Shown: in pieces, positions 9,629 to 61,355 of the stretch
How positions within the stretch are numbered: position 1 is the first letter of the stretch
Layout: the number at the start of each line of letters is the position of its first letter
From: an uncultured Acidimicrobiia bacterium
Lineage (GTDB): Bacteria; Actinomycetota; Acidimicrobiia; Acidimicrobiales; JACDCH01
Length of the DNA: 64,000 nucleotides
Assembly: GCA_963802415.1 (NCBI GenBank)
Contig: CAWDIH010000002.1
Coordinates: 427,543 to 491,542, forward strand
Direction of reading: 5' to 3'
Program-made: the position numbers and the translations under genes
Notes under the pieces: generated by a model
Database searches by the model: none
Seen by the model: only the letters and a program-made list of their open reading frames with translations
Told to the model about the DNA's origin: nothing

Positions 9629-9660
9629 GCGGACCGGCATCGGGGCGCGTCGCCGGGTCT

Positions 9661-14115: not shown

Positions 14116-14133
14116 GCCCTGCGGCGACTGACG

Positions 14134-14883
14134 ATGGCGTCGTTCGACGAACTGGTGGCCGAGGCGAGCACTGCGCCTATCGTCGGCTGGGACTTCAGCT
14201 GGCTCGAGGGGCGAGCGACGGAGGAGCGACCGAGCTGGCACTACGCGGCGCGGGTCGCGGAGCGGGCGGCGACCACTGAACGCATGCTCGATCTCGAGTG
14301 CGGTGGCGGCGAGCTCCTCGCCGGGCTGCCGCAGTTCCCACGCGTGCTCGTAGGCGCCGAGGGCTACCCGCCCAATACGACGATCGCTGCTCAGCGGTTG
14401 CGCCCACGGGGTGGGTACGTCGTGGCGATCGAGCCGGAACGCCAGGCGCTTCCGTTCAGGTCGGCATCATTCGACCTCGTCACCAGTCGACATCCGATCG
14501 CGACGTGGTGGGCTGAGATCTACCGCGTGCTCAGTCCGGGCGGAACGTACTTCTCCCAGCAGGTCGGCCCCCACAGCGTCGGCGAACTGAGTGAGTTCAT
14601 GTTGGGTCCGATCCCACCGTCCGGACGGGACCCGGAGCGAGCGCGCCTGGCGGCTCAGGCTGCCGGGCTCGTGGTGCGGGATCTGCGGGTCGAACGTCTC
14701 AGAACCGTCTTCGATGACGTCGGGGCGGTCGTCTACTTCCTCCGGCTGGTCGTATGGATCGTGCCGGGCTTCACGGTCGAGCGGTTCCGTGACCGGCTCG
14801 TCGCGCTCCACGCGCAGATCGAGCGCGACGGACCCTTCGTCGCTCACGCCACTCGATTCCTCATCGAGGCGTCGAAACCGTGA
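14134..14883 (+). CDS. class I SAM-dependent methyltransferase
   Basis: MLDLECGGGELL (motif I), FDLVTSRH and LSPGGTYFSQQVG. Confidence 0.8.
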   Translation: MASFDELVAEASTAPIVGWDFSWLEGRATEERPSWHYAARVAERAATTERMLDLECGGGELLAGLPQFPRVLVGAEGYPPNTTIAAQRLRPRGGYVVAIEPERQALPFRSASFDLVTSRHPIATWWAEIYRVLSPGGTYFSQQVGPHSVGELSEFMLGPIPPSGRDPERARLAAQAAGLVVRDLRVERLRTVFDDVGAVVYFLRLVVWIVPGFTVERFRDRLVALHAQIERDGPFVAHATRFLIEASKP

Positions 14884-24868: not shown

Positions 24869-24996
24869 CGCGCACATTGTCGACTCACCGACCGATTTCA
24901 GTGGCTGGGTCGACACAGACGCGTCCACGCCGCAGTCTGTGTCCGCTGAGCGACCGATCTGGTGGCTGAGTCGACACAGAAGTCTCTGCTGCGGAC
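24869..24996 (+). repeat. palindromic hairpin repeat array, locus B (2 units plus a degenerate tail)
   Basis: Starts CGCGCACATTGTCGACTCACCGAC, 23 nt after the restored soxR stop. The units are separated by a 14-nt spacer. Confidence 0.9.
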
Positions 24997-35059: not shown

Positions 35060-35230
35060 CGCGCACATTGTCGACTCACCAACCGATTTCGGTGGCTGAG
35101 TCGACACAGACACGTCTCCGGCCACGTCTGTGTCGGCTGAGCGACGGATCTGGTGGCTGAGTCGACACAGACGCGATGGCGGTGAGGTCCGTGTCGACTG
35201 ACCCACCCGTTCGGTGCCTGGGGTCTCGAT
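35060..35230 (+). repeat. palindromic hairpin repeat array, locus C (3 units, the last degenerate)
   Basis: Starts CGCGCACATTGTCGACTCACC. Two 14-nt spacers. Lies downstream of the MMPL gene and upstream of the HxlR gene. Confidence 0.9.
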
Positions 35231-46263: not shown

Positions 46264-46306
46264 CCACCGGCTCGTCGCTGGAGGCCGTCGAACGGCGTCG
46301 CCCATG

Positions 46307-46330
46307 TTACTGTAGTGACCATTCTAGTAA
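46307..46330. promoter_or_regulatory. candidate operator upstream of the Rieske oxygenase genes
   Basis: TTACTGTAGTGACCATTCTAGTAA is an imperfect dyad. It shares CTGTAGTGAYC with the complement of the site at 49011-49026. Confidence 0.45.
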
Positions 46331-46372
46331 TGGGCGGGCTCCGAGCGGGCTCGATCGCAAAGGGGAACCAGC

Positions 46373-47752
46373 ATGACGGTGCCGGTCGACGCGTTCGACG
46401 ACTTCGTCTCACTCGAGCGCGGCGAGGTGGATCGCCGGATCTACAGCGACCCGGAGATCTTCGAGCTCGAGATGGAGCGGATCTTTGCCCGGGCGTGGCT
46501 GTTCCTGTGCCACGAGACGCAGATCCGGAACGCCGGCGACTTCTTCCAGTCGGTGATGGGTCGCGACAACGTGCTCGTCGTGCGCCAGAAGGACGGCCGC
46601 GTCCGCGCTCTGCTCAACACGTGCGCGCACCGGGGAACGCGGTGTGCCGAGCGGAGGAAGGCAACGCCAAGAGCTTCCTGTGCACGTACCACGGCTGGTC
46701 GTACGGCATCGACGGGACACTCAAGGGTGTCCCGGGATTCAAGAACTTCTACGACGGTGAGCTCATCAAGGCCGAGCACGGGCTGCCCCCTGTCGCGCAG
46801 GTGGCGAGCTACAAGGGCTTCGTCTTCGGGACCAACGATGCGACTGCACCGCCGCTCGAGGAGTACCTGGGTGCCGCGGGGCGCCTGGGACTCGATCTGC
46901 TGGCGTGTCGAGGCGACATGGCTGTTGTGCCAGGCATCCAGAAGTTCGTCATCGATTGCAACTGGAAGTTCGCGCTCGACAACCTGTTCGACTGGTACCA
47001 CCCGCAGGTCACGCATGCGTCGGCCTTCCAACCCGGTGTGTTCGGCGGCGACGGCGCCGACGCGGGCATGGCAGGTTCCTCCGCCGAGACCATCGACCTG
47101 TCCGGTCTGGAGATGCAGAGCGGCGGGTCGCTCGACATCCCGATCGGCGGCATCACGGGCACGAAGTTCGACCAGGTCGTCGTGCTCGGGGAGTACGGCC
47201 ACGCCATCGGCGGCCCGCGCGCCGGCTCGTCGGGCGATGTCGACTTCGATCCGTCATGGCGAGACAACCCCGAGGCGCGGGCAGCGCTCGGTCCGGTGGG
47301 CATCACCGTGGCCGGTCACCCGAGCATCTTCCCGACGACGTGGGTCACGACGACGAACCAGATCTCGTTACGCATCCCACGCACACCGACCTCGACGGAG
47401 ATCTGGTGGTTCTCGTTCACCGATCAGACCCAGCCGAAGGAGGTGCGGGACTTCTTCACCACGATGCAGATCCGCATCTTCGGACCGGCAGGCGTCCTCG
47501 AGCAGGAGGACGGTGAGAACTGGGGCCAAGCGACGAAGCAGACGCAGCGGCGTCGCGTCGCGGCGCGTCAAGCACCTCGTGAACATGGGCGTGGGCCGCG
47601 GCAAGGTCATCAAGGAGGACGGCCTTGCCCACATCGACGGCCTCACGAGCGAGTACGGCCAACTGTGGACCTACCACTCGTGGGCGCAGTGGATGAAGGG
47701 ACTCGGCTGGGACGAGTTGCGCGACGTGACCATGCCGCCGGACGTCATTTGA
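46373..47752 (+). pseudogene. Rieske aromatic-ring-hydroxylating oxygenase alpha subunit, two frameshifts (~46634 and ~47548)
   Basis: CAHRG is in frame A. NAVCRAEEGNAKSFLCTYHGW (completing CxH...CxxH) and DNLFDWYHPQVTH (DxxxDxxHxxxxH) are in frame B. The C-terminus GVASRRVKHLVNMGVGRG...PPDVI returns to frame A. Confidence 0.85.
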
Positions 47753-47765
47753 GAGGGAGGGGGAG

Positions 47766-48311
47766 ATGGCGATCGACACGACGGAACCGGTGAGCGAGAA
47801 CCGCGTCGCGGCCATGGTGCGTCAGCATGAGGTCGAGCAGTTCCTCTACGACGAGGCCGCCCTCCTCGATGGCCACCATTACGAGGAATGGCTCGACCTG
47901 TTCGCGGACGACGCGTCGTACTTCATGCCGATCCGGCGCACGCGGCTGCAGGGCGAGGTCGACCAGGAGTTCACCAAGCCGGGCGAGATGGCGTTCTTCG
48001 ACGACACCAAGCCGCTGCTCGCGGGGCGGGTGAAGAAGCTCATGTCCGGCCGATCGTGGGCGGAGGATCCGCCGTCGCGCACACGCCGGCTGATCACGAA
48101 CGTTCGCGTGCTGGACGACGACGGCGCGCACCTGACGGTCGCGTCGAACTTCTTGCTGTACCGCACTCGACTCAACTCGGAGGAGGACACCTGGGTCGGG
48201 TCGCGGCGCGATGTGCTGCGCCGAGTGGGCGAGTCGTTCCGGATCGCGGCGCGCACGATCTACCTCGAGCAGACCGTGATCCTGTCTCGCAACCTCAGCA
48301 ACTTCTTCTGA
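47766..48311 (+). CDS. aromatic-ring-hydroxylating oxygenase beta subunit (NTF2-like)
   Basis: VEQFLYDEAALLDGHHYEEWLDLFADDASYFMP...RTRRLITNVRV. Confidence 0.85.
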   Translation: MAIDTTEPVSENRVAAMVRQHEVEQFLYDEAALLDGHHYEEWLDLFADDASYFMPIRRTRLQGEVDQEFTKPGEMAFFDDTKPLLAGRVKKLMSGRSWAEDPPSRTRRLITNVRVLDDDGAHLTVASNFLLYRTRLNSEEDTWVGSRRDVLRRVGESFRIAARTIYLEQTVILSRNLSNFF

Positions 48312-48980
48312 TCAGCGGCGACTAGGCCGGCGACTCCGTTGGTGACTCTTCTTCGAACCGGCACGACGCTTGGCGCGGAGTTGCTCGGCGGTGGCGAGCA
48401 CCGCGGTGGCGAGCAGGTCGAAGGCGCCGCTGAGCTCGACCTCGCCGGTTTCCTGCGCCACGAACAACCCGTCGGCCAACGCCATCGTCAGCGTCACGAG
48501 GGATTCGATGTCGTCACCGTCGAGATCGGCGAACAGCGTGGCGTACAGCGTCCGCGCTCGGTCCGACGCGACGCGACGGACCTCGACGAACTTGCGCCGT
48601 GCGGTCGGTTCCTCGGGCCGCCGCTCGAGAATGAGCATCAGCCCCAGACGGAGGAAGTCGGAGAACTCCGAGATCGCCGCACCCGTCCGCTGCATCTGGA
48701 GGTGGAACTGCTGTTCCGCCGTGGCGCCTCGGGGAACGGAGGCCGGTGTGGTCAACGCCGCTTCCCATTGGTTGAAGCTGCGATCGATGACCGCGGCGAT
48801 CAGCTCGTCCTTGTCCTCGAAGTGCCAGTAGATCGAGCTCGCAGGCAGGCCCGACCGCTCACTGATGAGGTTGATGCTTGTGCCTTCGTAGCCCCGTTCG
48901 CCGGCGATTTCCGCAGCGGCGTCGAGGATGCGTTCACGCGACACCTCGCCGTTGGCACGCTTGCGTCTCGCCTCGGCCAC
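48312..48980 (-). CDS. TetR-family transcriptional regulator
   Basis: RERILDAAAEIAGERGYEGTSINLISERSGLPASSIYWHFEDKDEL. Its stop abuts the convergent beta-subunit stop (TGATCA). Confidence 0.85.
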   Translation of the reverse strand: MAEARRKRANGEVSRERILDAAAEIAGERGYEGTSINLISERSGLPASSIYWHFEDKDELIAAVIDRSFNQWEAALTTPASVPRGATAEQQFHLQMQRTGAAISEFSDFLRLGLMLILERRPEEPTARRKFVEVRRVASDRARTLYATLFADLDGDDIESLVTLTMALADGLFVAQETGEVELSGAFDLLATAVLATAEQLRAKRRAGSKKSHQRSRRPSRR

Positions 48981-49010
48981 GCATTGACGTTACCAGCCAC
49001 GCCGACTTAG

Positions 49011-49026
49011 TGTAGCGATCACTACA
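49011..49026. promoter_or_regulatory. candidate TetR operator
   Basis: TGTAGCGATCACTACA is a near-perfect 16-bp palindrome between tetR (48980) and the dioxygenase ATG (49046). Confidence 0.55.
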
Positions 49027-49045
49027 GAAATTTTGGAGCCCGCTC

Positions 49046-49897
49046 ATGATCCGCAACTTGGCGTACATCGGCTTCTGCTCGCCCCACGCGGAGGAGTGGC
49101 GCCGGTTCGGCCCCGAGGTTCTCGGCGCTCAGCTTGCCTCCGACGGTCCTGACGGCGCGGTGCGGTTGCGGGTCGACGACGCGACGTGGCGCATCACCAT
49201 CCACCCGAGCGACCAAGACGACCTCGCCTACCTGGGCTGGGAGGTCGACGACCTCGCCGCGACGATCGCGGCCATCGAAGCCACCGGTACCGCCGTGAAG
49301 GACGACGCGTTCGTCGACCCGTTCGGATTCCGGCACGAGCTCGTCACCGCCATCGAGCATGGTCCGCCGTTCGCGCCTGGACGCCCGATGTCCGGCTTCG
49401 TCACCGGCAAGCAGGGACTCGGCCACGTCGTGCTCATCGTCCCGGACCTCGACGCAGCCGAGGCTTTCTACACCGACGTGCTCGGGTTCCGGCCGTCCGA
49501 CTCCATCGAGTCCGGGCTGAGCTTGCGGTTCCTCCACTGCGCGGGCCACGCTGCGCGCCACCACACCGTCGCATTGGCATCGGTGCCGGGGATGGTCGGG
49601 ATCCATCACCTCATGCTCGAGGTGAAGACCCTCGACGATGTCGGTACCGCCCTCGACGTCGTCAACGCGCGGCACCTCCGGCTCGCGATGACGCTGGGCC
49701 GCCACACCAACGACCTGATGACGTCGTTCTACGTGCGCACGCCGTCCGGCTTCGAGATCGAGTACGGCACCGGTGGTCTCGTGGTCGACGATGACACGTG
49801 GGAGGTCGGCGTCCACGACGCGCAGAGCATCTGGGGTCACAAGCCACCCGCCGAGCCCATGTACCCGGGCATCCTTCATTCCTTCGCCGAAACGTGA
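49046..49897 (+). CDS. extradiol ring-cleavage dioxygenase (type I, VOC fold; BphC/HsaC-like)
   Basis: Two VOC modules: LAYIGF...WRITIHP and LGHVVLIVPD...FLHC...HHTVAL...HHLMLEV...FYVRTPSGFEIEYG. Confidence 0.8.
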   Translation: MIRNLAYIGFCSPHAEEWRRFGPEVLGAQLASDGPDGAVRLRVDDATWRITIHPSDQDDLAYLGWEVDDLAATIAAIEATGTAVKDDAFVDPFGFRHELVTAIEHGPPFAPGRPMSGFVTGKQGLGHVVLIVPDLDAAEAFYTDVLGFRPSDSIESGLSLRFLHCAGHAARHHTVALASVPGMVGIHHLMLEVKTLDDVGTALDVVNARHLRLAMTLGRHTNDLMTSFYVRTPSGFEIEYGTGGLVVDDDTWEVGVHDAQSIWGHKPPAEPMYPGILHSFAET

Positions 49898-49956
49898 GCG
49901 CGGCGCCGCGCGGAGGTCAGGTGCGCACGTGAACGCCGACGTCTAGGAGCATCAGC

Positions 49957-50805
49957 ATGCGTATCCATCGCAACGGTGGCGGCAACCACCACACGATCGA
50001 GTCGGTCCGCGCCGTCGCGCGCGAGGCGGTGGACGACGGTCTTGCGGGCCTCTGGCTCTCGCAGGTGTTCGCACTCGACAGCCTCACCGCGCTCGCCATC
50101 GTCGCCGCTGATGCGCCCGGCATCGAGCTCGGCACGTCGGTCGTGCCGATCTACGGGCGCCACCCGATCGTGCTCGCGATGCACACGCTGACCGTGCAGG
50201 AAGCGACGGGCGGTCGTCTCGTGCTGGGTGTCGGGCCGTCGCACCAGGTCGTCGTCGAGATGCTGTTCGGCGAGTCGTACGCCACGCCGTACTCGGACAC
50301 GGCTGCCTACCTCGAAGCGCTGGGGCCGCTGCTGCGGAACGAGGGCGCCGTACAGATCGACGCGCCGCCGCCACCGGTGCTCGTCGCCGCACTCGGACCG
50401 CGCATGCTGCGGCTCGCGGCAGCAAAGGCCGACGGCGTCGCGCTCTGGATGACGGGACCGAGGACGATCGCCGGGCGCGTTCAGCCGATTGTCGACGGCA
50501 AGCGCATCCTCGCCGGCATCAGCGTGTGCGTCACCGACGACGTCGACGCCGCACGAGCGCGAGCCGCTGCCGAACAGAAGGTCTACGGCACGTTGCCTGC
50601 GTACCAGGCGGTTCTAGCGGCCGAAGGCGTGGCCGCGCCGGAAGACCTGCTGATCGCCGGCACCGAAGAAGTCGTCGTCGACGGCATCGTCGCCTACGCG
50701 CGGGCGGGCGTCACCGACGTGCGCGTCTCGATCATCAGCGGGAACGACGACGAGCACGGCCGAACCCGCGCCTTGCTCGCCGCGCTGCAAATGGAGCACG
50801 CATGA
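49957..50805 (+). CDS. LLM-class F420/flavin-dependent oxidoreductase
   Basis: GLAGLWLSQVFALD...GTSVVPIYGRHP...GRLVLGVGPSH. Confidence 0.75.
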   Translation: MRIHRNGGGNHHTIESVRAVAREAVDDGLAGLWLSQVFALDSLTALAIVAADAPGIELGTSVVPIYGRHPIVLAMHTLTVQEATGGRLVLGVGPSHQVVVEMLFGESYATPYSDTAAYLEALGPLLRNEGAVQIDAPPPPVLVAALGPRMLRLAAAKADGVALWMTGPRTIAGRVQPIVDGKRILAGISVCVTDDVDAARARAAAEQKVYGTLPAYQAVLAAEGVAAPEDLLIAGTEEVVVDGIVAYARAGVTDVRVSIISGNDDEHGRTRALLAALQMEHA

Positions 50806-51953
50806 CCCTCGTCACGATCGCCCAGCGGCTCGCACCCGAACTCGCTGCCGCACGCGCCGAGGGCGAGGACCAGCGGCGTCTGCCCGATGCCGTCTGGAAG
50901 GCGATGCTCGAGTCGGGCATCCTGCGGTCGTTGCAGCCCGCACGGTGGGGCGGTGGCGAGGTCCACATCATCGAGTTCGTCGATGCTGTCATGGAGCTCT
51001 CGCGGGTGGACCCTTCTGCGGGATGGGTGGCCGGCGTGATCGGCGTGCACCCGTGGCAGCTCGCCCTCTTCGACGAGCGCGCCCAAGAGGCGATGTGGGC
51101 CGACGATCCGTCGACGATGCACAGCTCGTCGTACTACCCGACCGGGTCCGCCCAGAAGGTCGACGGCGGCTACCTCGTGTGGGGTCGGTGGTCATTCTCG
51201 TCCGGCTGCGACCACTGCTGCGGCGTCAACCTCGGCGCCGTCGTCCGTGCCGGCGACGTGCCCGATTTCCGCTCCTTCCTGCTCCTACCCCACCAGTACC
51301 GGATCGAGGACAACTGGCACGTCGCCGGCCTCAAGGCGACGGGCAGCAACGACATCGTCGTCGAGGAGACGTTCGTCCCCGACCACATGACGCAGTCGCA
51401 CCTCGACTACGCGATGGGCGCCAACCTGCCGGGTCAGGACCGCAACGAAGGCATCCTCTACCGGCTTCCGCAGTCGGTCGTGTTCAACATGGCGCTCGCG
51501 GCCTCGATCCTCGGCTCGGCTCGCGGGTTCATCGACGCCTGGATCGATCACTCGAAGGACCGAGTGCTGACCGGCGGCGGGCGAGTCGCGGACGAGCCAC
51601 TGAGCCAGCGTCGCCTCGCCGACGCGCTCTGGGACCTCGACGCCGCCATCACCGTGCTGCGCACGGACGCGCAGACGATGTGGGACATGGCCACCGAACG
51701 CGAGACGCCCAGCACGGGCCAGCGCGCTCGCCTGCGATGGAACATGAACCGCGGCTGCGAGCGCGTCGCCGACGCCTGCGTCGGGCTGTACCGGGCTGCA
51801 TCCGGCCGTACCGCGTTCGTCGACCACCCGCTCCACGCCCGGTTCCAGGACCTGCAGACCGGCCTTGGCCACGCCTTCCTCGTCCCCGACCCTCTTGCCA
51901 AGGCCGTCGGCGGTGAATTGCTCGGCACCACCAAACCCGAGTTCGTCCTCTGA
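50802..51953 (+). CDS. acyl-CoA-dehydrogenase-fold flavin-dependent monooxygenase (HsaA/group D oxygenase-like)
   Basis: ATGA overlap with the upstream stop. RRLPDAVWKAMLESGILRSLQPARWGGGE...WHVAGLKATGSNDIVV. Confidence 0.75.
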   Translation: MTLVTIAQRLAPELAAARAEGEDQRRLPDAVWKAMLESGILRSLQPARWGGGEVHIIEFVDAVMELSRVDPSAGWVAGVIGVHPWQLALFDERAQEAMWADDPSTMHSSSYYPTGSAQKVDGGYLVWGRWSFSSGCDHCCGVNLGAVVRAGDVPDFRSFLLLPHQYRIEDNWHVAGLKATGSNDIVVEETFVPDHMTQSHLDYAMGANLPGQDRNEGILYRLPQSVVFNMALAASILGSARGFIDAWIDHSKDRVLTGGGRVADEPLSQRRLADALWDLDAAITVLRTDAQTMWDMATERETPSTGQRARLRWNMNRGCERVADACVGLYRAASGRTAFVDHPLHARFQDLQTGLGHAFLVPDPLAKAVGGELLGTTKPEFVL

Positions 51954-51958
51954 CAACC

Positions 51959-52879
51959 GTGGGTCGTATCGACACGCACAGCCACGTCGTCCCGCCGGAC
52001 TACGCGCACTGGCTGCGCGGCAAGGGTGTCGCCGCCGGTGGGCTGCCGATCCCCGCGTGGGACCCGGAAGCCACGCTGTTCGTGATGGACCGCCACGACA
52101 TCGCGGCTGCCGTGCTGTCGGTGTCGACCCCCGGCGTTCACCTCGGCGACGGTGCGGACGCGCGCGCGATGGCGCGACACGTCAACGACTACGCCGCGCA
52201 GATGACGCACGACCACCCTGACCGGTTCGGGTTCTTCGCAACCCTTCCCTTGCCCGACGTCGACGGCGCGCTCACCGAGCTGGACCGAGCCTTCGACACG
52301 CTCGGCGCCGACGGCGTCGTCCTCCTCGCCAACCACCGAGGCATCTATCTCGGCGATCCGCGCTTCGATCCGATCTTCGACGAGCTGCAGCGCCGTGCCG
52401 CGGTCGTCTTCGTGCACCCGTCGGTGCTGCCGGGCCTCGACGCGATCGAAGGGATCCCGCCGTTCATCGCCGACTTCCTGCTCGATACGACACGAGCTGC
52501 GCTCAACCTCGGCCGCACCGGGACGCTCGACCGGAGCCCCGACGCGCGCTTCATCCTCTCCCACGCCGGCGGAATCGTCCCGTACGCCGCCTACCGCATC
52601 GCGCTCGCTGCGTCCGGCAATGGCGATGTCGCCGAGGGGCTCCGTCTGCTGCACCGGTACTACTTCGACATCGCGCTGTCGGGAACACCGACCGCACTGC
52701 CGAGCCTGCTCGCGTTCACGACCCCTGAACACATCACGTTCGGCAGCGACTGGCCGTACGCATCCGACCTCGTCGTCGCCGCCATGACGCGGATGTACGA
52801 GACGTTCGACCTCGACGTCGCCGCTCGACAGCAGATCGATCGCGGCACCGCCGCGACGTTGTTCCCGAGGTTCGCATGA
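51959..52879 (+). CDS. amidohydrolase-2 family protein (ACMSD/LigW-type decarboxylase or hydratase)
   Basis: IDTHSHVVPPDY, FVHP, ILSHAGG and FGSDWPY are metal-ligand motifs of the family. Confidence 0.8.
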   Translation: MGRIDTHSHVVPPDYAHWLRGKGVAAGGLPIPAWDPEATLFVMDRHDIAAAVLSVSTPGVHLGDGADARAMARHVNDYAAQMTHDHPDRFGFFATLPLPDVDGALTELDRAFDTLGADGVVLLANHRGIYLGDPRFDPIFDELQRRAAVVFVHPSVLPGLDAIEGIPPFIADFLLDTTRAALNLGRTGTLDRSPDARFILSHAGGIVPYAAYRIALAASGNGDVAEGLRLLHRYYFDIALSGTPTALPSLLAFTTPEHITFGSDWPYASDLVVAAMTRMYETFDLDVAARQQIDRGTAATLFPRFA

Positions 52880-53832
52880 TGGCTACGTATCGACATCGGT
52901 TCGGACCGCACAACCCAGCCGAGACCTACCTACCGCACACGTTCCCCGAGCGGCTCGTCGACCTCGGCGAGGTGCAGATGAACTACGCCACACTTGGCGA
53001 CGCGTCGAAGCCCGCGCTGCTGCTGATCCCGGCACAGACCGAGTCGTGGTGGGGCTACGAGCAATCGCTGCCGCTCCTTGCCCAACACTTCAACGCGTTT
53101 GCCGTCGATCTGCGCGGCCAAGGCCGGTCCACCCGGACACCGGGCCGTTACACGCTTGACAACATGGGCAACGACCTCGTCCGCTTCATCGACGTCGTCA
53201 TCGGCAGACCGACGTTCGTCAGTGGCCTCTCGTCCGGCGGCGTGCTGTCGGCGTGGCTGTCGGCGTACGCCAAGCCCGGGCAGGTCATCGCCGCCCACTA
53301 CGAGGACCCGCCGCTGTTCGCCTCCGAGGTGCAGCCGGCGACAGGCCAAGGAGTTCGTCAAGGCATCGGCGCGGTGTTTCATCTCTGGTCCACCCACCTC
53401 GGCGACCAGTGGAACATCGGCGACTGGGACGGTGTCGTAGCCGCCGCTCCCGACATCCTGCCCGCGTGGATGCAGGCGCTGTTCTCTCCACCGGCAGAAC
53501 CGCCGCAGAACCTCAAGGAGTACGACCCCGAGTGGGGGGGCGCGTTCTGGACCGGCTCGGTCGCGGCGTCCTGTGACCACGAGCGCATGCTGCGTTCGGT
53601 CAAGGTTCCGGTGCTGTTGACCCACCACTTCCGCCTTGTCGACGAGCCAACCGGGTTCCTCATGGGTGCGCTCTCGGACCTGCAAGCCAAGCGCGCGCTC
53701 GAGCTGCTGGGCGAGGCGGGTGTCGCCGTCGACTACCGGTCGTTCGAACACATGGGGCACTCGATGCACGGCCAAGACCCGCAGCTGTTCACCGACACGC
53801 TCGTCGACTGGGCGACCTCAGTGGAGCCGTAG
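52876..53832 (+). CDS. alpha/beta-fold hydrolase
   Basis: ATGA overlap with the upstream gene. LLIPAQTESWWGY...DLRGQGRS...FVSGLSSGG (GxSxG)...HMGHSMH. Confidence 0.8.
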   Translation: MMATYRHRFGPHNPAETYLPHTFPERLVDLGEVQMNYATLGDASKPALLLIPAQTESWWGYEQSLPLLAQHFNAFAVDLRGQGRSTRTPGRYTLDNMGNDLVRFIDVVIGRPTFVSGLSSGGVLSAWLSAYAKPGQVIAAHYEDPPLFASEVQPATGQGVRQGIGAVFHLWSTHLGDQWNIGDWDGVVAAAPDILPAWMQALFSPPAEPPQNLKEYDPEWGGAFWTGSVAASCDHERMLRSVKVPVLLTHHFRLVDEPTGFLMGALSDLQAKRALELLGEAGVAVDYRSFEHMGHSMHGQDPQLFTDTLVDWATSVEP

Positions 53833-53867
53833 CCGTGGTTGTCGCGTCATGCGACAGACTGCAGGCC

Positions 53868-55004
53868 ATGTCGATGATCACGCCCTTCGAGGTTCGGATC
53901 TCCGACCACGAGGCGAACGATCTGCGTGAACGTTTGGCACGGACGCGTTGGCCCGATGCAGAGACGGTGGACGACTGGACCCAAGGTGTCCCGCTCGCCT
54001 ACGTACGCGGGCTGTGCGACTACTGGGGTGAGGGCTACGACCTCGAGGCGGCGCAAGCGCGGTTCAACGCCTTTGCGCAGTACCGCACTGCGATCGACGG
54101 ACTTGATATCCACTTTCTCCACGTGCGGTCGCCGCACCCGGACGCGCTCGCCCTCGTGATCACGCACGGATGGCCCGGGTCGGTCGCCGAGTTCCACGAC
54201 GTGATCGGACCGCTGACCGATCCGGTGGCGCATGGTGGAGATGCGAGTGACGCGTTCCACGTGGTGTGCCCGTCGCTCCCCGGCTACGGGTGGAGCGGCA
54301 AACCCGCACGGCAGGGCTGGGGCATCGAACGGATCGCGGCGGCGTGGGCCGAGTTGATGGCGCGTCTTGGTTACACCGCATACGGCGCGCAAGGCGGTGA
54401 CTGGGGTGCGGGAGTCACCGTTGCGCTCGGCATGCTCGATCGCGAGCGCGTTGTCGGCATTCATCTCAACATGGTGATCGCGCTGCCGGACCCGGAAACC
54501 ATGGACGATCTCACGGATCAAGAGCGCGACGCGCTCGATGCGCTCGACTTCTACCAGAAGTGGGACTCGGGATACTCCAAGGAGCAGTCGACGCGTCCGC
54601 AGACGCTCGGATACGGCCTGGTCGATTCGCCGGCGGGACAGTGCGCCTGGATCGTCGAGAAGCTGTATGCGTGGTCGGACTGCGACGGCCATCCCGAGAA
54701 TGTGTTCGGTCGCGATCGAATGCTCGACAACGTGATGGCCTATTGGCTGCCCGGCACCGGTGCGTCTTCGGCTCGGCTGTACTGGGAGAGCTTCAACCGC
54801 ATGCGGATCGACAAGGTCGACATCCCGGTGGGGTGCACGCGATTCCCCAAGGAGATCTTCCGGCCGTCGCGCCGCTGGGCCGACAAGCAGTTCAGCGACA
54901 TCCGCTACTGGAACGAACCCGAACACGGCGGGCACTTCGCCGCGTTCGAACGTCCCGCGATCTACGTCGACGAAGTCCGCGCCGCCTTCCGGGCGATGCG
55001 GTAA
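53868..55004 (+). CDS. epoxide hydrolase (EHN N-terminal domain plus alpha/beta fold)
   Basis: ITPFEVRISDHEANDLRERLARTRWPD...HGWPGSVAEF...GGDWGA. Confidence 0.85.
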   Translation: MSMITPFEVRISDHEANDLRERLARTRWPDAETVDDWTQGVPLAYVRGLCDYWGEGYDLEAAQARFNAFAQYRTAIDGLDIHFLHVRSPHPDALALVITHGWPGSVAEFHDVIGPLTDPVAHGGDASDAFHVVCPSLPGYGWSGKPARQGWGIERIAAAWAELMARLGYTAYGAQGGDWGAGVTVALGMLDRERVVGIHLNMVIALPDPETMDDLTDQERDALDALDFYQKWDSGYSKEQSTRPQTLGYGLVDSPAGQCAWIVEKLYAWSDCDGHPENVFGRDRMLDNVMAYWLPGTGASSARLYWESFNRMRIDKVDIPVGCTRFPKEIFRPSRRWADKQFSDIRYWNEPEHGGHFAAFERPAIYVDEVRAAFRAMR

Positions 55005-55021
55005 CGGGCGGGCGCCCGCAT

Positions 55022-55261
55022 CGCGCACATTGTCGACTGAGCGACCGATTTCGGTGGCTGACCAGACACAGACGATGGATCGCTCGCGTTTGTGTCTGCT
55101 GAGCCACCGTTGTAGTGGCTGAAACGACACAGACCGGCGTGCGCGCGTCTGTGTCTGCTGAAGCACGGTTGCGGTGGCTGAAACGACACAGAGTTCGCGC
55201 GCGACGCGTCTGTGTCGCCTCAGCGACCTGTTTCCGTGGCTGAGGCGACAATGTGCGCGCG
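55022..55261 (+). repeat. palindromic hairpin repeat array, locus D (4 units, both termini present)
   Basis: The left end CGCGCACATTGTCGAC (55022-55037) and right end GCGACAATGTGCGCGCG (55245-55261) are inverted copies. Spacers are 14, 12 and 14 nt. Starts 18 nt after the stop at 55004. Confidence 0.9.
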
Positions 55262-55496
55262 TCGGAAGCGGTGGAACAGGGTCGTGAGCCTGCCCAACCA
55301 GTCGGTGGGATGGAGGTTCACTCGTCGATGCTCGCGGCCGCGAGAGCGGCAGCACCGCGCTCGGGCCTGTCCTGTATCCATTGCACACCATCTTCGGTCG
55401 CGCAGTTGCAGGACGGTTCGTACTCTCTTGCAGGCGACGCCGAGTTGTATACAGTCCGTGCGTGCTACGACCGCCTGAGCTCCCTGGCGATTAGGC

Positions 55497-55874
55497 GTGG
55501 CCTCAGTCGACACCGAGCACCGCCGGTTGTGCCACGCGCTGTTCGACGCACTCGAGCAAGGCGACATCGCCACCGTCGACGCGTGCTACGCCCCCGAGAT
55601 GACCATGTGGTTCAACGTCACGAATCAGGAGTCGACCCGAGAGCAGAACCTCGAGGCGCTGGTCAAAGGCAAGCGCCTCCATCGCCGCCGCACGTACAAC
55701 GACCGAATCATCAGCACGTTCGACGACGGGTTCATCGCGCAGTACACGTTGAACGTCGTCGCGCACGACGGTTCGACGGTGTCGCTGTCGGCGTGCCTCG
55801 TCGGTGAGGTCCACGATGGCAAGATCGTGAAGCTGTACGAGTATCTCGACTCGGGAAAGTTCGTGTCCCGCTGA
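55497..55874 (+). CDS. NTF2-like (SnoaL-like) protein, paralog 1 of 3
   Basis: LCHALFDALEQGDIATVDACYAPEMTMWFNV...RRRTYNDRIISTFDDGFIAQYTL...YEYLDSGKF. Confidence 0.75.
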   Translation: MASVDTEHRRLCHALFDALEQGDIATVDACYAPEMTMWFNVTNQESTREQNLEALVKGKRLHRRRTYNDRIISTFDDGFIAQYTLNVVAHDGSTVSLSACLVGEVHDGKIVKLYEYLDSGKFVSR

Positions 55875-56266
55875 TGGATGAGTACGAGATCCGGGAGCTG
55901 TGCAACGCCTTCTTCGACGCCTACCAGGACGGTCGTGTCGATGTGCTCGACCGCCTCTACGCCGACGACTGCATCGTGTGGCACAACGTCTTCGGACGGG
56001 AGACGACGCGCGACGAGAACTTGGCACGGTACGCCGACAGCTACAGCGGCCAGCGCAGGCGCACGTACAACGACCGCATCATCAACACCTTCCACGACGG
56101 GTTCGTGATCCAGTACACGCTGAACGGGGTGATGAACACGGGTCATAGGGGAGCGTTGTGGATCTGCATCGTCGCCACGTGCAAGGACGGGCGGATCACC
56201 CGCATCGACGAGTACATGGACTCGTCGAAGTTCGCCGAGTGGGCGGGTCGAGAGGGGGCGGAGTGA
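55874..56266 (+). CDS. NTF2-like (SnoaL-like) protein, paralog 2 of 3
   Basis: TGATG overlap with paralog 1. LCNAFFDAYQDGRVDVLDRLYADDCIVWHNV...RRRTYNDRIINTFHDGFVIQYTL. Confidence 0.75.
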   Translation: MDEYEIRELCNAFFDAYQDGRVDVLDRLYADDCIVWHNVFGRETTRDENLARYADSYSGQRRRTYNDRIINTFHDGFVIQYTLNGVMNTGHRGALWICIVATCKDGRITRIDEYMDSSKFAEWAGREGAE

Positions 56267-56652
56267 GGAAGGACTGGCAGACGTTCGAGCTCTGCGACCG
56301 GTTCTTCGACGCGATCGAGCAGAAAGACTACGAGCGGCTCGAATCGTGCTACGCGCCCGAGGCCGTGATCTGGCACAGCCACGACCGCCTCTACCAATCG
56401 CGCGCTGACAACCTGGCGATGTTGAAGAAGGGGATGGAGCTGCTCCCCAAGACGCGCTTCAAGGATCGCCGTGTGCGCGTCTTCGAGGGCGGCTTCGTGC
56501 AGCAGCACACGATCTACGTGACCCGGCCGGACGGGTTCGTCGGTCAAATGGAGGTCTGCTTCGTCGGCTACGTGCGCGACGGGATGATCAGTCGCGCCTA
56601 CGAGTACTTCGACACCGGCCAGATCGAGAAGTTCATCGGACCGCGGAGCTGA
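56263..56652 (+). CDS. NTF2-like (SnoaL-like) protein, paralog 3 of 3
   Basis: GTGA overlap with paralog 2. LCDRFFDAIEQKDYERLESCYAPEAVIWHS...YEYFDTGQI. Confidence 0.7.
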   Translation: MRKDWQTFELCDRFFDAIEQKDYERLESCYAPEAVIWHSHDRLYQSRADNLAMLKKGMELLPKTRFKDRRVRVFEGGFVQQHTIYVTRPDGFVGQMEVCFVGYVRDGMISRAYEYFDTGQIEKFIGPRS

Positions 56653-56654
56653 CG

Positions 56655-57821
56655 ATGGCCACGGAGCACACGGGTACGCCGGCCGAAGGTCTCGTCGAGC
56701 GTGTGCGCGCGGTCGTACCGATGATCGCGTCGACGTCGTTCGAGGCCGAGGCGCAGCGCCGGCCCCTCGACGAGGTCATTGACGCGCTCAAAGCGACCGG
56801 TGTGTTCCGCTCGTTCGTACCGGCTCGATACGGCGGCTACGAGATCGACATGTCGACGTACGTCGACATCGCGCTCGCCGTGGCGCACGCTGATCCGTCG
56901 ATGGGGTGGATCACCACCTTCTACATGGAGCACAACTGGCTGCTGACGATGTTCCCCGACGAGCTCCAGGACGAGATCTTCGGCGCGCATCCCTTCGTAC
57001 TCGCCCCCGGAACGGTCAACCCCAGCGGCCGCGCCGTTCGGGCGGACGATGGCACGTACTCACTCTCGGGTCACTGGCAGTTCGGCACCGGGATCTGCCA
57101 CGCGGACTTGGTGCTGCTGAGCGGCAAGTTCGAAGGCGACGACGCCGTACGGCTGTTCCTCGTCGAGCAGGACCAAGTGGAGGTGAAGGACACCTGGCAC
57201 GTCGACGGCATGGCGGCCACCGGCAGCCGCGACATCGTCGCCACGGACGTGTCCGTCCCACCGCAGCGGGTCTCGCTCATGCCGCCCCCGCACGCGCTCG
57301 CCCGGCCCGGAGACCCGTACCTCCTGCGCATCCCGATCCCGCCCTTCCTGTCGCTGACTGCGGCGCTGCCCGCGGTTGGCGCGGCGCAGCGAGCGCTCGA
57401 GCTCTTCGAGGAGCTGCTCTTCGGACGGATCATGTTCGGCACGAAACGGACCCAGAGTGCGCGGGTGCCGACGCAGGTCCGCCTCGCGAACCTCAGGGTC
57501 GAGGTCGATTTCGCCGAGACGCTCGTGCGTGACGTCGCAGCTCGCATGCAGGCGCATTGCGACGGAACGATCGACCTCGACTCGCTCGGCCAGCAGCACC
57601 TCCGTCTGGCGATCGCCCACATCGTGCGCCGCTGCCGTGACGTGGTGCGCGAGATCCTGGCGTCGAGCGGCGCGTCGGTGCACTACCTCGACCACGAGCT
57701 GCAGCGGCTCCACCGCGACGTCCACATGATCTGTGCCCATACGGTGTTCGACGTCGACCTCGTCGCCGAGGGGGTCGGCCGTGCCATCGTCGTCGCGCGC
57801 GAAACCAGGCGCGACGAGTGA
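56655..57821 (+). CDS. acyl-CoA-dehydrogenase-fold flavin-dependent monooxygenase (HsaA-like), second copy
   Basis: Starts 2 nt after the paralog 3 stop. RRPLDEVIDALKATGVFRSFVPARYGGYE...WHVDGMAATGSRDIVA. Confidence 0.75.
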   Translation: MATEHTGTPAEGLVERVRAVVPMIASTSFEAEAQRRPLDEVIDALKATGVFRSFVPARYGGYEIDMSTYVDIALAVAHADPSMGWITTFYMEHNWLLTMFPDELQDEIFGAHPFVLAPGTVNPSGRAVRADDGTYSLSGHWQFGTGICHADLVLLSGKFEGDDAVRLFLVEQDQVEVKDTWHVDGMAATGSRDIVATDVSVPPQRVSLMPPPHALARPGDPYLLRIPIPPFLSLTAALPAVGAAQRALELFEELLFGRIMFGTKRTQSARVPTQVRLANLRVEVDFAETLVRDVAARMQAHCDGTIDLDSLGQQHLRLAIAHIVRRCRDVVREILASSGASVHYLDHELQRLHRDVHMICAHTVFDVDLVAEGVGRAIVVARETRRDE

Positions 57822-57909
57822 AGCGTGCAGGTCAGTGTGGCAAACGACCCTTGCGGGACGGAGCGCCGGAGGCCATGGTTCCCGGAGCGAGTGGTGTGGA
57901 AGGACCGCG

Positions 57910-58107
57910 ATGAGGGTGCACGTGGACGAGACGAGGTGTGAGGGGCACGGCCGTTGCTACGACCTCGCGCCCGATCTGTTCGAGCCCGACGAGATCGGGA
58001 ACTCGCACGAGACGAATGACGGCATCGTTCCGGCGGGCCGCGAGGAGCTGGCCCGACGCGCGGTCCTGAACTGCCCCGAACGCGCGATCACGATCACGGA
58101 GGACTGA
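57910..58107 (+). CDS. small ferredoxin (P450-associated, CxxHxxC...CP type)
   Basis: 65 aa. VDETRCEGHGRCYDLAPDLF...NCPERAITI. Confidence 0.8.
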   Translation: MRVHVDETRCEGHGRCYDLAPDLFEPDEIGNSHETNDGIVPAGREELARRAVLNCPERAITITED

Positions 58108-58109
58108 GG

Positions 58110-59403
58110 ATGGCCGAACAAGACGCTCGACCGCAATCGGTCGACGAGCGGTTCGCGTCGCTCGCGGACGAGATAGACGAGGAGCCGATGGGCTTCAACA
58201 ACGAGGTCATCATCGGTCCGGTCTCGGATTTCGCAACCGACTTCGATCACACGGCCGACGAGTGGGCCGCCGACCCGTACCCGATCATCGAGGATCTCCG
58301 CGAGCGGTGCCCCATCGCACACACCGACCGCTATGGAGGCGGCTGGCTGCCGGTCGGTCACGACCAGGTGGCCGAGATCGCCTACGACACCGAGCACTTC
58401 ACGTCCCGGTCGGTGGTCATGGGCAACCACCGTCCGCCACGAGAGCTCGCGCCCGTCGGTATCGCGCCACCGATCTCGTCGGACCCGCCGTTCCACCACG
58501 GCGCCCGTCGGGTGCTGCTTCCCGCGTTCGCGCCGCCGCGCGATCACCAAGCTCGAACCGGGCACGCGCGACTACTGCGAGTCGTTGCTCGACGATCTCG
58601 AGGGACGGCCGGTCGTGGATGCCGCAGCTGACTTCGCGCAGCACATTCCGGTCCGGGTCATCGCCGACATGCTCGGGTTCCCGCCACAGGATGCAGAGCT
58701 GTTTCGTGGGTTCGTCCACAACACCCTCGAAGGGATCAACGAGCCGCTCGAGGTGCGGTTCGAGCGGATGCAGGGGTTGTTCGGCTACTTGAGCGCTCAG
58801 ATCGACGATCACCTCCGCACACCGCGTGACGACCTCACGTCCTTTCTCATCGATGCGGAGATGGACGGCGTGAAGCTCGACGCGTCCCACATCGTCGGAT
58901 CGATGGCCTTGCTGTTGCTGGCCGGCATCGACACCACCTGGAGCGCGATCGGCGCATCGATATGGCACCTCGCCAAGACGCCGGCGGACCGCAAACGGCT
59001 CGTGGCCGAGCCCGACCTGTTGCCCATCGCCATGGAGGAACTGCTGCGGGCCTACTCACCCGTGACGATGGCGCGGCTCGTCAAGGATGACATGGACTGG
59101 CACGGCTGCCCGATGAAGGCCGATGACTGGGTGCTGCTCTCCTTCCCTGCTGCGAACCGCGACCCGAGCGCCTTCGAAGACGCCGATCGCGTCATCATCG
59201 ATCGTGAGATCAATCGGCACTCGGCGTTCGGTCTCGGCGTGCACCGCTGCATCGGTTCGCATCTCGCGCGCATGGAGCTTCGTGTCGCGTTGGAGACATG
59301 GCTGGCTCGTTTCCCCTCGTTCTCGCTTGCCGACCCCGACGCAGTGACCTGGTCGCCGGGACAAGTGCGCGGTCCTCGACAGCTGCCCATCGCGGTGGGC
59401 TGA
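58110..59403 (+). pseudogene. cytochrome P450, frameshifted near 58535-58542
   Basis: The N-terminal part ends ...PPFHHGARRVLLPAFAPP. The +1 frame continues AITKLEPGTRDYCESLL...LLLAGIDTT...FGLGVHRCIGSHLA (heme Cys loop). Confidence 0.85.
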
Positions 59404-59419
59404 CCGCAGACGCCGGCGC

Positions 59420-59532
59420 CGCGCACATTGTCGACTCAGCCACGGAAACACGTCGCTGAGTCGACACAGAGTTTCGTCCTGGCGCGTCTGTGTCGACTCA
59501 GCCACCGGATCCGTGGGTCAGGCGACACAGAC
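59420..59532 (+). repeat. palindromic hairpin repeat array, locus E (2 units)
   Basis: Starts CGCGCACATTGTCGACTCAGCCAC, 17 nt after the P450 stop. One 14-nt spacer. Confidence 0.9.
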
Positions 59533-59542
59533 GCGACCCCTC

Positions 59543-59965
59543 CTACCCCAGCACGCCGAGTCCGGCTTCCGCGACTTCCATGTCCTGGCTCCAGTGCGCG
59601 CCGCTGACGCCGATCGCGCCGACGCGCGTGCCATCGATGTTGATCGGAAAGCCGCCTCCGAACACGACGAGGCGATCGATCCCCGCGGTCGCGCCGGCTG
59701 ACAGGGGCGCATCGTCCTTGATGAAGTCGAACCATCCGTCGGTGGGGAGGCCGAATCCGACGGCGGTGTACGCCTTGTCCTGCGCCACCTGCACACTGAG
59801 GAGCGCGGCACCGTCCATGCGGCTGAACGCCTTCAGCACCCCGCTCTCGTCCACGATTGCGATCACGAACGGGATGCCCATCTCGTTCGCCTTTGCTTCG
59901 GCAGCGTCGACCATGCGACGCGCGAGCTCGGTGGAGATGCTCGCCTTCGGGAACGTGTCGGCCAT
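59543..59965 (-). CDS. GlcG/HbpS-like (DUF336) heme-binding-type protein
   Basis: ARRMVDAAEAKANEMGIPFVIAIVDESG...AQDKAYTAVGF...GGFPI...GAIGVSG. GGAGG RBS before ATG 59965. Confidence 0.8.
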   Translation of the reverse strand: MADTFPKASISTELARRMVDAAEAKANEMGIPFVIAIVDESGVLKAFSRMDGAALLSVQVAQDKAYTAVGFGLPTDGWFDFIKDDAPLSAGATAGIDRLVVFGGGFPINIDGTRVGAIGVSGAHWSQDMEVAEAGLGVLG

Positions 59966-59991
59966 GCCGCCTCCTTGTCGGTCGCTGAACG

Positions 59992-60882
59992 TTACGAGAG
60001 GAACTGCTTCTCGAGCTCGCTGATCTCGGGCATTCCGATGAACTCGAGGAACTCCGCGAACCGGGGAAGCCGATCCATGATCGGGATCGGGGTCCCGGCC
60101 GCCGCGATGTCTGCGAGCGCCTGGCGGATCGACGCTGTCGCCGTGAGCAACGTGCTGATCGGATAGATGACGATGGCGAAGCCGAGATCGCGCAGCCGGT
60201 CGTAGGGGACCGGAGGGGTCTTTCCTCCTTCGGCCCAGTTGAACAGCAGAGGTACGTCGGCCAGTTCGGACGCGACCGTCTCGATCTCTTCCTCCGTCCT
60301 CGCCGCCTCCACGAAGAGCACGTCCGCCCCCGCATCGCGGTAACGGCGGGCGCGGTCGAGGGCGGCCGGGAGCCCTTCGACGGCGCGGGCGTCGGTGCGG
60401 GCGATGATGATGAACTCGGAGGACTGTCTCGCTGCGGTCGCGGCGCGGATCTTCGTGAGCATCTCGTCGGTCGGTACGACTTGTTTGCCTTCCAGGTGTC
60501 CGCACTTCTTGGGCGCGACCTGGTCCTCGAGATGGATCGCGGCGACGCCGGCCTGCTCGTACTCCTGCACGGTCCGGACCACGTTGATCGCGTTGCCATA
60601 ACCGGTGTCGGCATCGGCGATGACTGGCAACTCGCAGGCTCGAGCGATGCGGTGCGCGTTGTCGACCATCTCGCCCATCGTCACGAGGCCGACGTCGGGC
60701 CGGCCGAGCAACGACGCGGCGGTGCCGAAGCCGGTCATGTACACCGCGTCGAACCCGGCTTCCTCGACGAGGCGAGCGCCGAGCGCGTCGTACACGCCGG
60801 GCGCGAGCACCGGAGCACGGGCCGAGAGAAGCTCGCGCAACCGCCGGGGTCCGTTCGTCGCTGGGCGCAAGTAGTTCGCCAT
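59992..60882 (-). CDS. isocitrate lyase/PEP mutase superfamily protein (methylisocitrate-lyase / phosphorylmutase-like)
   Basis: PGVYDALGARLVEEAGFDAVYMTG...DADTGYGN...HLEDQVAPKKCGH. Confidence 0.8.
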   Translation of the reverse strand: MANYLRPATNGPRRLRELLSARAPVLAPGVYDALGARLVEEAGFDAVYMTGFGTAASLLGRPDVGLVTMGEMVDNAHRIARACELPVIADADTGYGNAINVVRTVQEYEQAGVAAIHLEDQVAPKKCGHLEGKQVVPTDEMLTKIRAATAARQSSEFIIIARTDARAVEGLPAALDRARRYRDAGADVLFVEAARTEEEIETVASELADVPLLFNWAEGGKTPPVPYDRLRDLGFAIVIYPISTLLTATASIRQALADIAAAGTPIPIMDRLPRFAEFLEFIGMPEISELEKQFLS

Positions 60883-60921
60883 CAGTTCTCCCGTCGAGTC
60901 GCTGTCGATGCGCAGCGCGCC

Positions 60922-61245
60922 TCAGCCGACGCGCAGCTCGCCGAGCTCGGCCCAGTCGTCCTGGTCGACGACCTGGCTGATGATGCGAGGTGTCTCGACC
61001 AGGTACGACGGTAGGTCAACGCGAGCTTGCCCGAAATGGTCGGACTGCACATGAGCCGCTCCTGCGTCGGCGTCGTGGAACGCCTCCACGAGCACGTACT
61101 CGGTCGGATCATCGACGTTGCGGGACCAGTTGAACCACAGACACCCGGGTTCGCTGCGTGTCGCGTCGGTGAACACGCGGGTTATCTCGGGCCATTGCTC
61201 CGCGTGTTCCGGGCGTACCCAGAACTTGGCGGTGATGAAGATCAT
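60922..61245 (-). CDS. antibiotic-biosynthesis-monooxygenase (ABM) domain protein
   Basis: MIFITAKFWVRPEH...EPGCLWFNWSR...YVLVEAFHDADAGAAHVQSDHF. Confidence 0.75.
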   Translation of the reverse strand: MIFITAKFWVRPEHAEQWPEITRVFTDATRSEPGCLWFNWSRNVDDPTEYVLVEAFHDADAGAAHVQSDHFGQARVDLPSYLVETPRIISQVVDQDDWAELGELRVG

Positions 61246-61355
61246 GTCGCTACTCCCCAAAGGTGTTCACGGTGGCTTCGTCGCGTTGTCGCACGAGATG
61301 CTCCTCGACGGTGTGGACGGCGACTTCTCATCTCGCTTGGAGCAGGCGCACACCT

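Follow-up and report, generated by a model that had tools for sequence, protein, structure and literature searches.

Much is known about the small interspersed palindromic repeats of Proteobacteria and Firmicutes, but hardly any have been described from Actinobacteria. The mycobacterial MIRUs are actinobacterial intergenic tandem repeats of about 50-100 bp that occur in variable number at many loci. The BOX elements of Streptococcus pneumoniae, boxA-(boxB)n-boxC, are built from end modules with inverted repeats and from tandem internal modules whose number varies between strains (PMC3049150). REPs are imperfect palindromes of 20-40 bp with stems of 5-13 bp (PMC3733652) and, together with the BIMEs and REPINs, they are extragenic, lie mostly downstream of genes and are not accompanied by target-site duplications (PMC3733652, PMC3116915). 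A 2013 survey of tagged REPs makes no mention of Actinobacteria (PMC3733652), and our search of the literature on REP/RAYT in Actinobacteria and on MITEs in Acidimicrobiia returned nothing relevant.

In this work, we follow up a first-pass annotation of a 64,000-nucleotide stretch of DNA from an uncultured Acidimicrobiia bacterium (hereafter the window, to which all positions refer unless a contig is named). That annotation picked out five loci, A to E, and proposed that D is the full-length form of a MITE-like element. We find that these loci belong to a previously undescribed family of small, non-coding, palindrome-rich repeats carried by a few uncultured soil Acidimicrobiia. By comparing family members from reference genomes and soil metagenomes, as well as orthologous sites that are empty in close relatives, we describe the structure of the family and how it may spread, and weigh the alternative explanations.

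Anatomy of locus D

Locus D spans 55022-55259(61) and is composed of four quasi-palindromic units of about 47 nt that recur with a period of 59-61 nt between two inverted termini:

55022-55037, + strand: left terminus (T end), CGCGCACATTGTCGAC, read from the sequence and invariant in the 13 aligned full copies
55026-55073, + strand: unit 1, arms TGTCGACTGAGCGAC and GTGGCTGACCAGACA around the center CGATTTCG, from the geometry and the profile HMM
55074-55087: spacer 1, 14 nt, which differs among copies
55088-55134, + strand: unit 2, internal type, a palindrome with conserved mismatches
55135-55146: spacer 2, 12 nt
55147-55193, + strand: unit 3, internal type, absent from the 98%-identical relative L046
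55194-55207: spacer 3, 14 nt
55208-55255, + strand: unit 4, the sole strong stand-alone hairpin in D
55244-55261, - strand: right terminus, GGCGACAATGTGCGCG(CG), the left terminus inverted, from the sequence, the terminus match and the alignment

The family consensus of the terminus is (G)TCGCGCACATTGTCGAC. The first-pass annotation had described two ends that match over 14 nt as reverse complements, and this is exactly what is found: the 14-mer CGCGCACATTGTCG lies without mismatch at 55022-55035 (+) and 55246-55259 (-), the terminal inverted repeats agree at 15/16 positions, and GCGACAATGTGCGCGCG at 55245-55261 mirrors the left terminus. The same 14-mer occurs exactly at 9516, 24869, 35060 and 59420, which brings the window to 6 exact matches against an expectation of about 0.0005; allowing up to two mismatches gives 9 matches against 2.3 expected. 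Beyond the termini, the inverted repeat at D reaches 53 nt at 77% complementarity.

The four enclosed hairpin units of the first-pass annotation are likewise borne out by the period and by a unit profile HMM, which placed units at 55027-55073, 55091-55134, 55148-55192 and 55209-55253. Tandem Repeats Finder reported a period of 59 and 2.2-2.7 copies at D, and a 20-mer taken from one arm had 11 matches in the window against 0.00 in shuffled sequence. Over the whole window the profile HMM found 12 good units, all of them in the five loci; a weak unit-like match at 14106-14169 (E ~3) was rejected as chance. D alone is two-ended among the window loci, as first described, and the other four carry one terminus each. 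The evidence supports D as a complete, two-ended member of a repeat family.

A repeat family of soil Acidimicrobiia

The pattern CGCGCACATTGTCGMCTSA was scanned over 185,579 reference genomes and returned 38 stretches. The window itself is not one of them; it comes from a related genome, and the orthologues of its P450 carry the label Acidimicrobiales. The Acidimicrobiia MAG MFD05841.bin.2.7 accounts for 23 of the 38 and the Acidimicrobiales MAG SMAG_U5409 for a further 7, which are variant copies. The remaining stretches (Dehalococcoidia, Opitutus, Gluconobacter and others) have no adjoining units and were set aside as chance matches. In JGI metagenomes the same pattern gave 23 stretches, 9 of which are family members, from soils. 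Viral contigs scanned with terminus and arm patterns gave 0 matches, and BLAST searches of the window and of D against plasmids and phages returned nothing relevant.

About 16 of the 23 loci in MFD05841.bin.2.7 are two-ended. Some 12 of its copies have four units and measure 237-251 bp, mainly 238-241 bp; three units make up L002, L027 and L033 (175-178 bp), and the irregular L034 has its ends about 205 bp from each other. Both termini are also present on the single-hairpin copies at L008, L037 and L052, and L009 has a 54-nt center. Taken over the family, complete copies hold 1, 3 or, most often, 4 units, with one copy that apparently has 5 and one with a split center. The exact pattern missed many right ends because the right terminus is often variable in its final three bases (GCG, GAC or GGG). 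The first-pass annotation had allowed that genome-wide copies might show no consistent right terminus, or that the inverted end at 55245-55261 might be peculiar to this locus. The two-ended copies of MFD05841.bin.2.7 do share a right terminus, and the inverted end recurs there and in the soil metagenomes; the right end of D is not a chance half-unit.

The variant copies of SMAG_U5409 (L001, L007, L008, L012, L013, L023 and L037) keep the family terminus and differ at the inner junction, which reads GACCCAGAA / TTCTGGGTC as compared with GACACAGAC / GTCTGTGTC; in this genome, separate single hairpins of terminus type and inner type lie side by side. A further observation comes from L010 (2946-3052), where two neighboring units are identical over 47 nt and the three surrounding spacers are unrelated, a pattern that suggests homogenization of units independently of spacers.

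Geometry, conservation and flanks

Thirteen four-unit copies, set in the same orientation, can be aligned end to end. An alignment of this kind had been proposed at the outset as a means of defining the termini and any target-site duplication: it yields common ends in all 13 full copies. In each unit of 47-48 nt, a CGAAATCG-like center of 7-8 nt has an arm of about 21-23 nt on either side; spacers are 14 nt long in 40/59 cases (range 10-17), and the terminus of 16-18 bp is inverted at the opposite end of complete copies. The element has a polarity, as most copies align to D with scores of 112-135 one way and 73-100 the other. The internal junction recurs in variant form as the terminus (CGCG-CACAT-TGTCGAC in the terminus, CGCG-TCTG-TGTCGAC in the junction).

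Mean pairwise identity is 0.79-0.82 in the units and 0.78-0.85 in the termini, as compared with 0.39-0.44 in the spacers and 0.37-0.40 in the flanks. Mean column identity among copies is 74%, so the copies are fairly diverged and give no sign of recent activity. The closest copies also share spacers: a spacer beginning TTCGTC is common to A, E and L048, and B and C are alike in their spacer. This sharing indicates that whole blocks were copied, after which the spacers drifted and the arms did not.

Two-ended copies are bordered by skewed sequence, with C making up 48.5% of the left flank and G 48.5% of the right; D is without the C-rich left collar. The mirror-image skew often takes the form of short low-complexity repeats such as GAGGGCGAGG, as seen at L021 6226-6245 and 6486-6505. 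Insertion into pre-existing hairpins was considered and rejected, as a copy's own flanks are no more complementary to each other than the flanks of different copies. The skew is most readily described as a compositional collar or a target preference and not as a trace of insertion into pre-existing hairpins. We found no direct repeats at the flanks of 22 two-ended copies. At D, the flanks are as the first-pass annotation quoted them, and its remark that they hold no direct target-site duplication is upheld by the lack of any flanking direct repeat.

Two-unit copies with one terminus

The remaining loci in the window, whose contexts were checked by Pfam on the flanking ORFs, are as follows:

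9516-9632, + strand: locus A, two units, right-half type, flipped; between convergent AMP-binding and DUF1905 genes
24869-24985, + strand: locus B, two units, left-half type; 32 nt past a MerR gene
35060-35220, + strand: locus C, two left-half-type units and a degenerate third (35188-35220)
59420-59536, + strand: locus E, two units, right-half type, flipped; between convergent P450 and HbpS-like genes

Locus C lies between the stop of an MMPL gene and the start of an HxlR gene (Pfam). Locus E lies 16 nt past the P450 gene and 7 nt before the stop of the convergent HbpS-like gene, and its left boundary at 59420 was set by the break in homology with the related contig L071. Together with L014, L017, L025, L026, L036, L048 and L054, loci A, B, C and E make up about 11 one-terminus copies, each of which has exactly two units and stops at the inner junction GACACAGAC(GCG). 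Against the oriented consensus, the left half is matched by B, C, L017 and L036, and A, E, L025, L048 and L054 correspond to the right half in reverse complement.

The first-pass annotation had taken the four loci for truncated or shorter variants that keep the left end only and carry 2-3 units. The single terminus stands, but the copies are discrete two-unit halves, and A and E represent the right half, flipped. The one-terminus loci are a discrete size class derived from both ends of the full element and not ragged truncations. One way in which two-unit copies could arise is by use of the terminus-like inner junction as an alternative end.

Folding and the nature of the conserved sequence

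Shuffled sequences fold much less well than either strand of D (z -6.3 and -8.8). The optimal fold joins one terminus to the other, and joins each right arm to the left arm that follows it beyond the spacer; family-wide, Watson-Crick pairing of arms is 77.6% across spacers and 73.3% across unit centers. As single hairpins, units 1-3 of D have z values of -1.4, -1.9 and +0.4, and unit 4 has an ssDNA fold of -19.8 kcal/mol (z -4.6).

Tests for base-pair covariation were negative: 80.5% of cells are paired as compared with 82.3% when partners are shuffled among copies, and a second test gave 0.778 as compared with 0.794. Several positions are mismatched in 10-12/13 copies, which means that the asymmetry of the palindrome is itself conserved. 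Both orientations of the element occur relative to the upstream gene, and co-directional contexts show no excess of sense-strand G-U pairs (G-T 39, A-C 33, p = 0.56). Rfam returned nothing meaningful, either for the whole window at the gathering threshold or for the surroundings of D at E<=1, and a promoter and terminator scan around D found no sites and predicted no T-tract terminator. The lack of covariation and of strand bias indicates repeat biology at the level of DNA and not an RNA gene. What is conserved is the sequence of arms and termini as DNA, a palindrome whose imperfections are fixed, rather than an RNA helix kept by compensatory changes; such a pattern would be expected of a protein recognition site.

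Gene context and orthologous sites

All copies are intergenic, adjoin gene 3' ends and have no coding capacity. They lie 16-130 nt past stop codons, often between convergent genes, and 2/38 copies lie between divergent genes by a rough in-house GC3-based ORF call. The surroundings of D are as follows:

53835-55004, + strand: epoxide hydrolase gene (EHN and alpha/beta-hydrolase domains, Pfam), with its stop 17 nt before D
55009-55493: 485-bp stretch that replaces 19 bp of L070 (likewise of L039), made up of 13 nt, the element and 234 nt
55265-55385, - strand: gene remnant, 84% identical to the inside of a 291-aa ORF near the L022 copy
55497-55874, + strand: SnoaL/NTF2-like gene, 236 nt downstream of D

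Pfam agrees with the initial placement of D between the epoxide hydrolase gene and the NTF2-like, monooxygenase and P450 genes, the last of which ends at 59403. Relatives with empty sites, which the first-pass annotation had suggested looking for, were found: L070 has neither D nor E and L039 has no D, although the junctions are not clean. L070 is the orthologous region in MFD05841.bin.2.7, reached by a P450 search. It is collinear with the window over 53821-55008, 55494-59404 and 59543-61256 at 90-94% nucleotide identity, and its 21 kb contain no family units. The distance from the epoxide hydrolase stop to the SnoaL start is 26 bp in L070. The metagenome contig L039, with an epoxide hydrolase 94% identical and a SnoaL protein 90% identical, is likewise without D. 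Presence and absence between relatives are thus clear. The relative L046 (epoxide hydrolase 98% identical) has D at the same place with one 59-nt period fewer: at L046 1156-1279, unit 2 jumps to the spacer after unit 3, and the contig ends inside the element. D had been said to separate two operons; its position is right, but in relatives without the element the gap is 19-26 bp, and the epoxide hydrolase to SnoaL genes were probably one transcription unit that the insertion split.

At site E, 138 bp of the window correspond to 50 bp in L070, where the 50 bp hold an ordinary hairpin with a 10-bp stem between convergent genes. L071 (92.7% nucleotide identity) is homologous up to window position 59419, one base before the E terminus; beyond the break (L071 6793-6860) come C-rich unrelated sequence and then a different downstream gene. 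The intergenic sequence on either side of the element is unlike that of the relative, at D as well as at E, and no target-site duplication is visible against the empty orthologous sites.

The extra DNA at D includes more than the element. The remnant at 55265-55385 begins four bases past the right terminus, and the 291-aa ORF that it resembles, which has no Pfam family, lies 48 nt from the right end of the L022 copy. The D copy thus appears to have arrived with, or later to have fused to, a piece of a neighboring gene. The 485 bp of extra DNA and the foreign gene fragment argue against simple cut-and-paste of a 240-bp element at D, and in this respect the description as MITE-like fits only loosely; the D copy may have arrived or been remodeled by recombination rather than by transposition.

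Several other features of this region were observed. The P450 gene (58110-59403) is split over two frames at about 58535-58537 as compared with an intact 430-aa orthologue in L070, to which both parts are 94% identical; it is either a frameshifted pseudogene or an assembly error. The JGI 3300041967 contig with P0253 carries an IS110-family transposase (DEDD_Tnp_IS110 and Transposase_20) about 4 kb from the P450 orthologue; IS110 relatives target palindromic repeats. Upstream of D, a beta-lactamase-like gene and the epoxide hydrolase gene are about 7.5 kb apart (46270-53820), and the same interval in L070 and L039 holds only a PNPOx gene (about 0.5 kb), for which tblastn gave no match in the window. 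The HbpS-like ORF is over-extended, and a protein search with it returned one match at 57% identity.

A candidate mobilizing enzyme

No mobilizing enzyme was identified in the window and about 300 kb of related loci. Outward-facing termini form long-range pairs in this sequence only at L001 and L032. At L032 (4336-5568), a terminus and two units are followed by a 309-aa ORF and then by two units and a terminus, with the termini facing outward. The ORF is preceded by an AGGAGG ribosome-binding site, and its stop lies 2-3 nt from the inner end of one half. Its product matches DUF559, which has a restriction-endonuclease fold, at 32 bits (Pfam cut-off 20.6), with weaker matches to REase_MTES_1575 and PDB 3HRL; a comparison with plasmids gave one weak and uninformative match, from Tsukamurella.

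This arrangement recalls a REPtron, in which a RAYT gene is flanked by REPs, and would fit a family serviced by a single-copy dedicated nuclease, the DUF559 protein of L032. The other family loci examined contain no homologue of the ORF, as expected of such an enzyme. Against this, the arrangement is a single instance, its two halves are no more alike than random halves, and the outward-facing halves at L001 flank 2.5 kb that include an ordinary thiolase-like gene, which indicates that such pairs can be chance where there is about one element per 10 kb. We know of no DUF559 protein that moves DNA. The arrangement at L032 may reflect a dedicated enzyme or chance, and we consider the REPtron-like reading unlikely. 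The fuller proposal, that the family is the non-autonomous part of a REPtron-like system with a DUF559 (Vsr/restriction-endonuclease-fold) enzyme and not a Y1/HUH transposase, is slightly less probable again.

Origin and spread of the family

The explanation that we favor, with a probability of about 0.65, is that D represents a complete member of an interspersed, non-coding family of repeats specific to one lineage of uncultured soil Acidimicrobiia. The shared spacers indicate copying of whole blocks, which came to lie at new intergenic sites directly behind genes, and sites filled in one genome are empty in a 90-94%-identical relative. The number of units changes by loss or gain of one 59-61-nt period, which is shown for one case and which we infer as a rule. 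The contrast between arms and termini that are about 80% identical and spacers at background suggests that arms and termini are recognized by a trans-acting protein, which would read them as palindromes in duplex DNA or as extruded hairpins. The mismatches are conserved and units 1-3 of D are weak hairpins, so that hairpin recognition is only a possibility. If the family behaves as REP/BIME and BOX elements do, it would be spread by a transposase or nuclease whose gene lies elsewhere in the genome. As a by-product, the dense palindromes behind stop codons could, whichever way they point, block transcription or protect the 3' ends of mRNAs. At D, the insertion has moved the epoxide hydrolase and SnoaL-like genes away from each other; in relatives the two lie 19-26 bp apart.

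Part of this evidence would also suit elements maintained by the host, such as bidirectional terminators, mRNA 3'-end stabilizers or binding arrays for a nucleoid-associated or topology protein, a role that has been proposed for BIMEs; such elements would be retained by selection and would spread for the most part by recombination. The positions 16-130 nt past stop codons and often between convergent genes, the regular 61-bp period, the strong folding of both strands (z -6.3, -8.8), arms conserved far above spacers, and the placement of E where the empty orthologous spacer has a 10-bp-stem hairpin all fit such a role. Orthologous sites nevertheless do without the element, the arms show no covariation and the family is confined to few genomes; host maintenance also leaves identical termini at dozens of unrelated sites unexplained, and we regard it as improbable. 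The initial description of D as MITE-like points to another source of mobility, an internally deleted IS derivative with the same terminal inverted repeats, moved by the DDE transposase of the IS. The likeness is real as far as the inverted ends of 14-18 bp, the small size, the lack of coding capacity, the multiple copies and the presence and absence in relatives are concerned. It fails on the target-site duplication, absent at 22 two-ended copies and at the two sites with empty orthologues. The first-pass annotation had proposed comparing the termini with IS ends; the window's 64 kb and about 300 kb of related loci contain no IS-sized pair of termini around a transposase. In addition, the ends are a variant of the junction between internal units and the family is GC-rich and not AT-rich, so that a classical MITE is quite improbable.

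Evenly spaced palindromic repeats with variable spacers of fixed length, and strong predicted folds, could also bring to mind a structured non-coding RNA or a miniature CRISPR-like array. The tests contradict both: the spacers are 12-15 nt and are inherited between related copies, 1-5 repeats are found at dozens of loci, Rfam, covariation and strand preference are all negative, and there are no cas-like genes among the flanking genes examined. We consider this reading very nearly excluded.

Significance

The family extends the known range of interspersed palindromic repeats. It bears on assembly, as some contigs, L046 and L049 among them, break off within a copy of the element, and it is a strain-typing marker for these uncultured soil bacteria. 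Locally, the insertion at D opened a 485-bp gap in a catabolic cluster that is tightly packed in relatives. On present evidence the mechanism is not new: no new mechanism has been demonstrated, and the one lead, the DUF559 nuclease found at a single locus (L032), is speculative. If true, it would mean a new class of enzyme that mobilizes palindromic repeats, and the DUF559 proteins that are widespread in Actinobacteria would gain their first function.

Comparison with known systems

The family is set apart from CRISPR arrays, which have spacers of about 26-72 nt, few long arrays and cas genes, by its spacers of 12-15 nt. Like the MIRUs it consists of variable-number intergenic actinobacterial repeats, but MIRUs are direct repeats oriented with the operon, are non-palindromic and are without terminal inverted repeats. 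With MITEs such as Correia/NEMIS, Nezha and ERIC the family shares its short length, non-autonomy, terminal inverted repeats, multiple copies, presence and absence, and strong structure; it differs in having no target-site duplication, no parent IS in the window and related loci, and an internal tandem array of palindromes.

The resemblance to REP/BIME/REPIN sequences lies in the position downstream of genes and between convergent or co-directional genes, the clustering with alternating arm orientation, the conserved mismatches in imperfect palindromes and the lack of target-site duplication. Unlike REPs, the family has units of 47-48 nt with arms of about 21-23 nt, and a defined terminal inverted repeat of 16-18 bp. 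No RAYT gene was seen among the partly screened ORFs of the window and related loci. Of the REP tags, GTAG is absent, and CGTC occurs inside the inner junction GCGTCTGTGTC and before the T end in 4/13 aligned copies, where it is part of a symmetric sequence and not a one-sided tag as in REPs.

The closest match in architecture is BOX. Like BOX, the family is intergenic, non-coding and strongly self-pairing, and its module number varies, both between D and L046 and among copies of 1, 3 or 4 units. Unlike BOX, it has a high GC content, its end and internal modules are variants of one 47-nt palindrome, and it includes a discrete two-unit, one-terminus class and shows no target-site duplication. 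The likeness is architectural only, and homology is unlikely given the different phylum and base composition. In its general kind, the family is an interspersed repeat of the REP/BIME-, BOX- and MITE-like type, new as a family and no new kind of biology.
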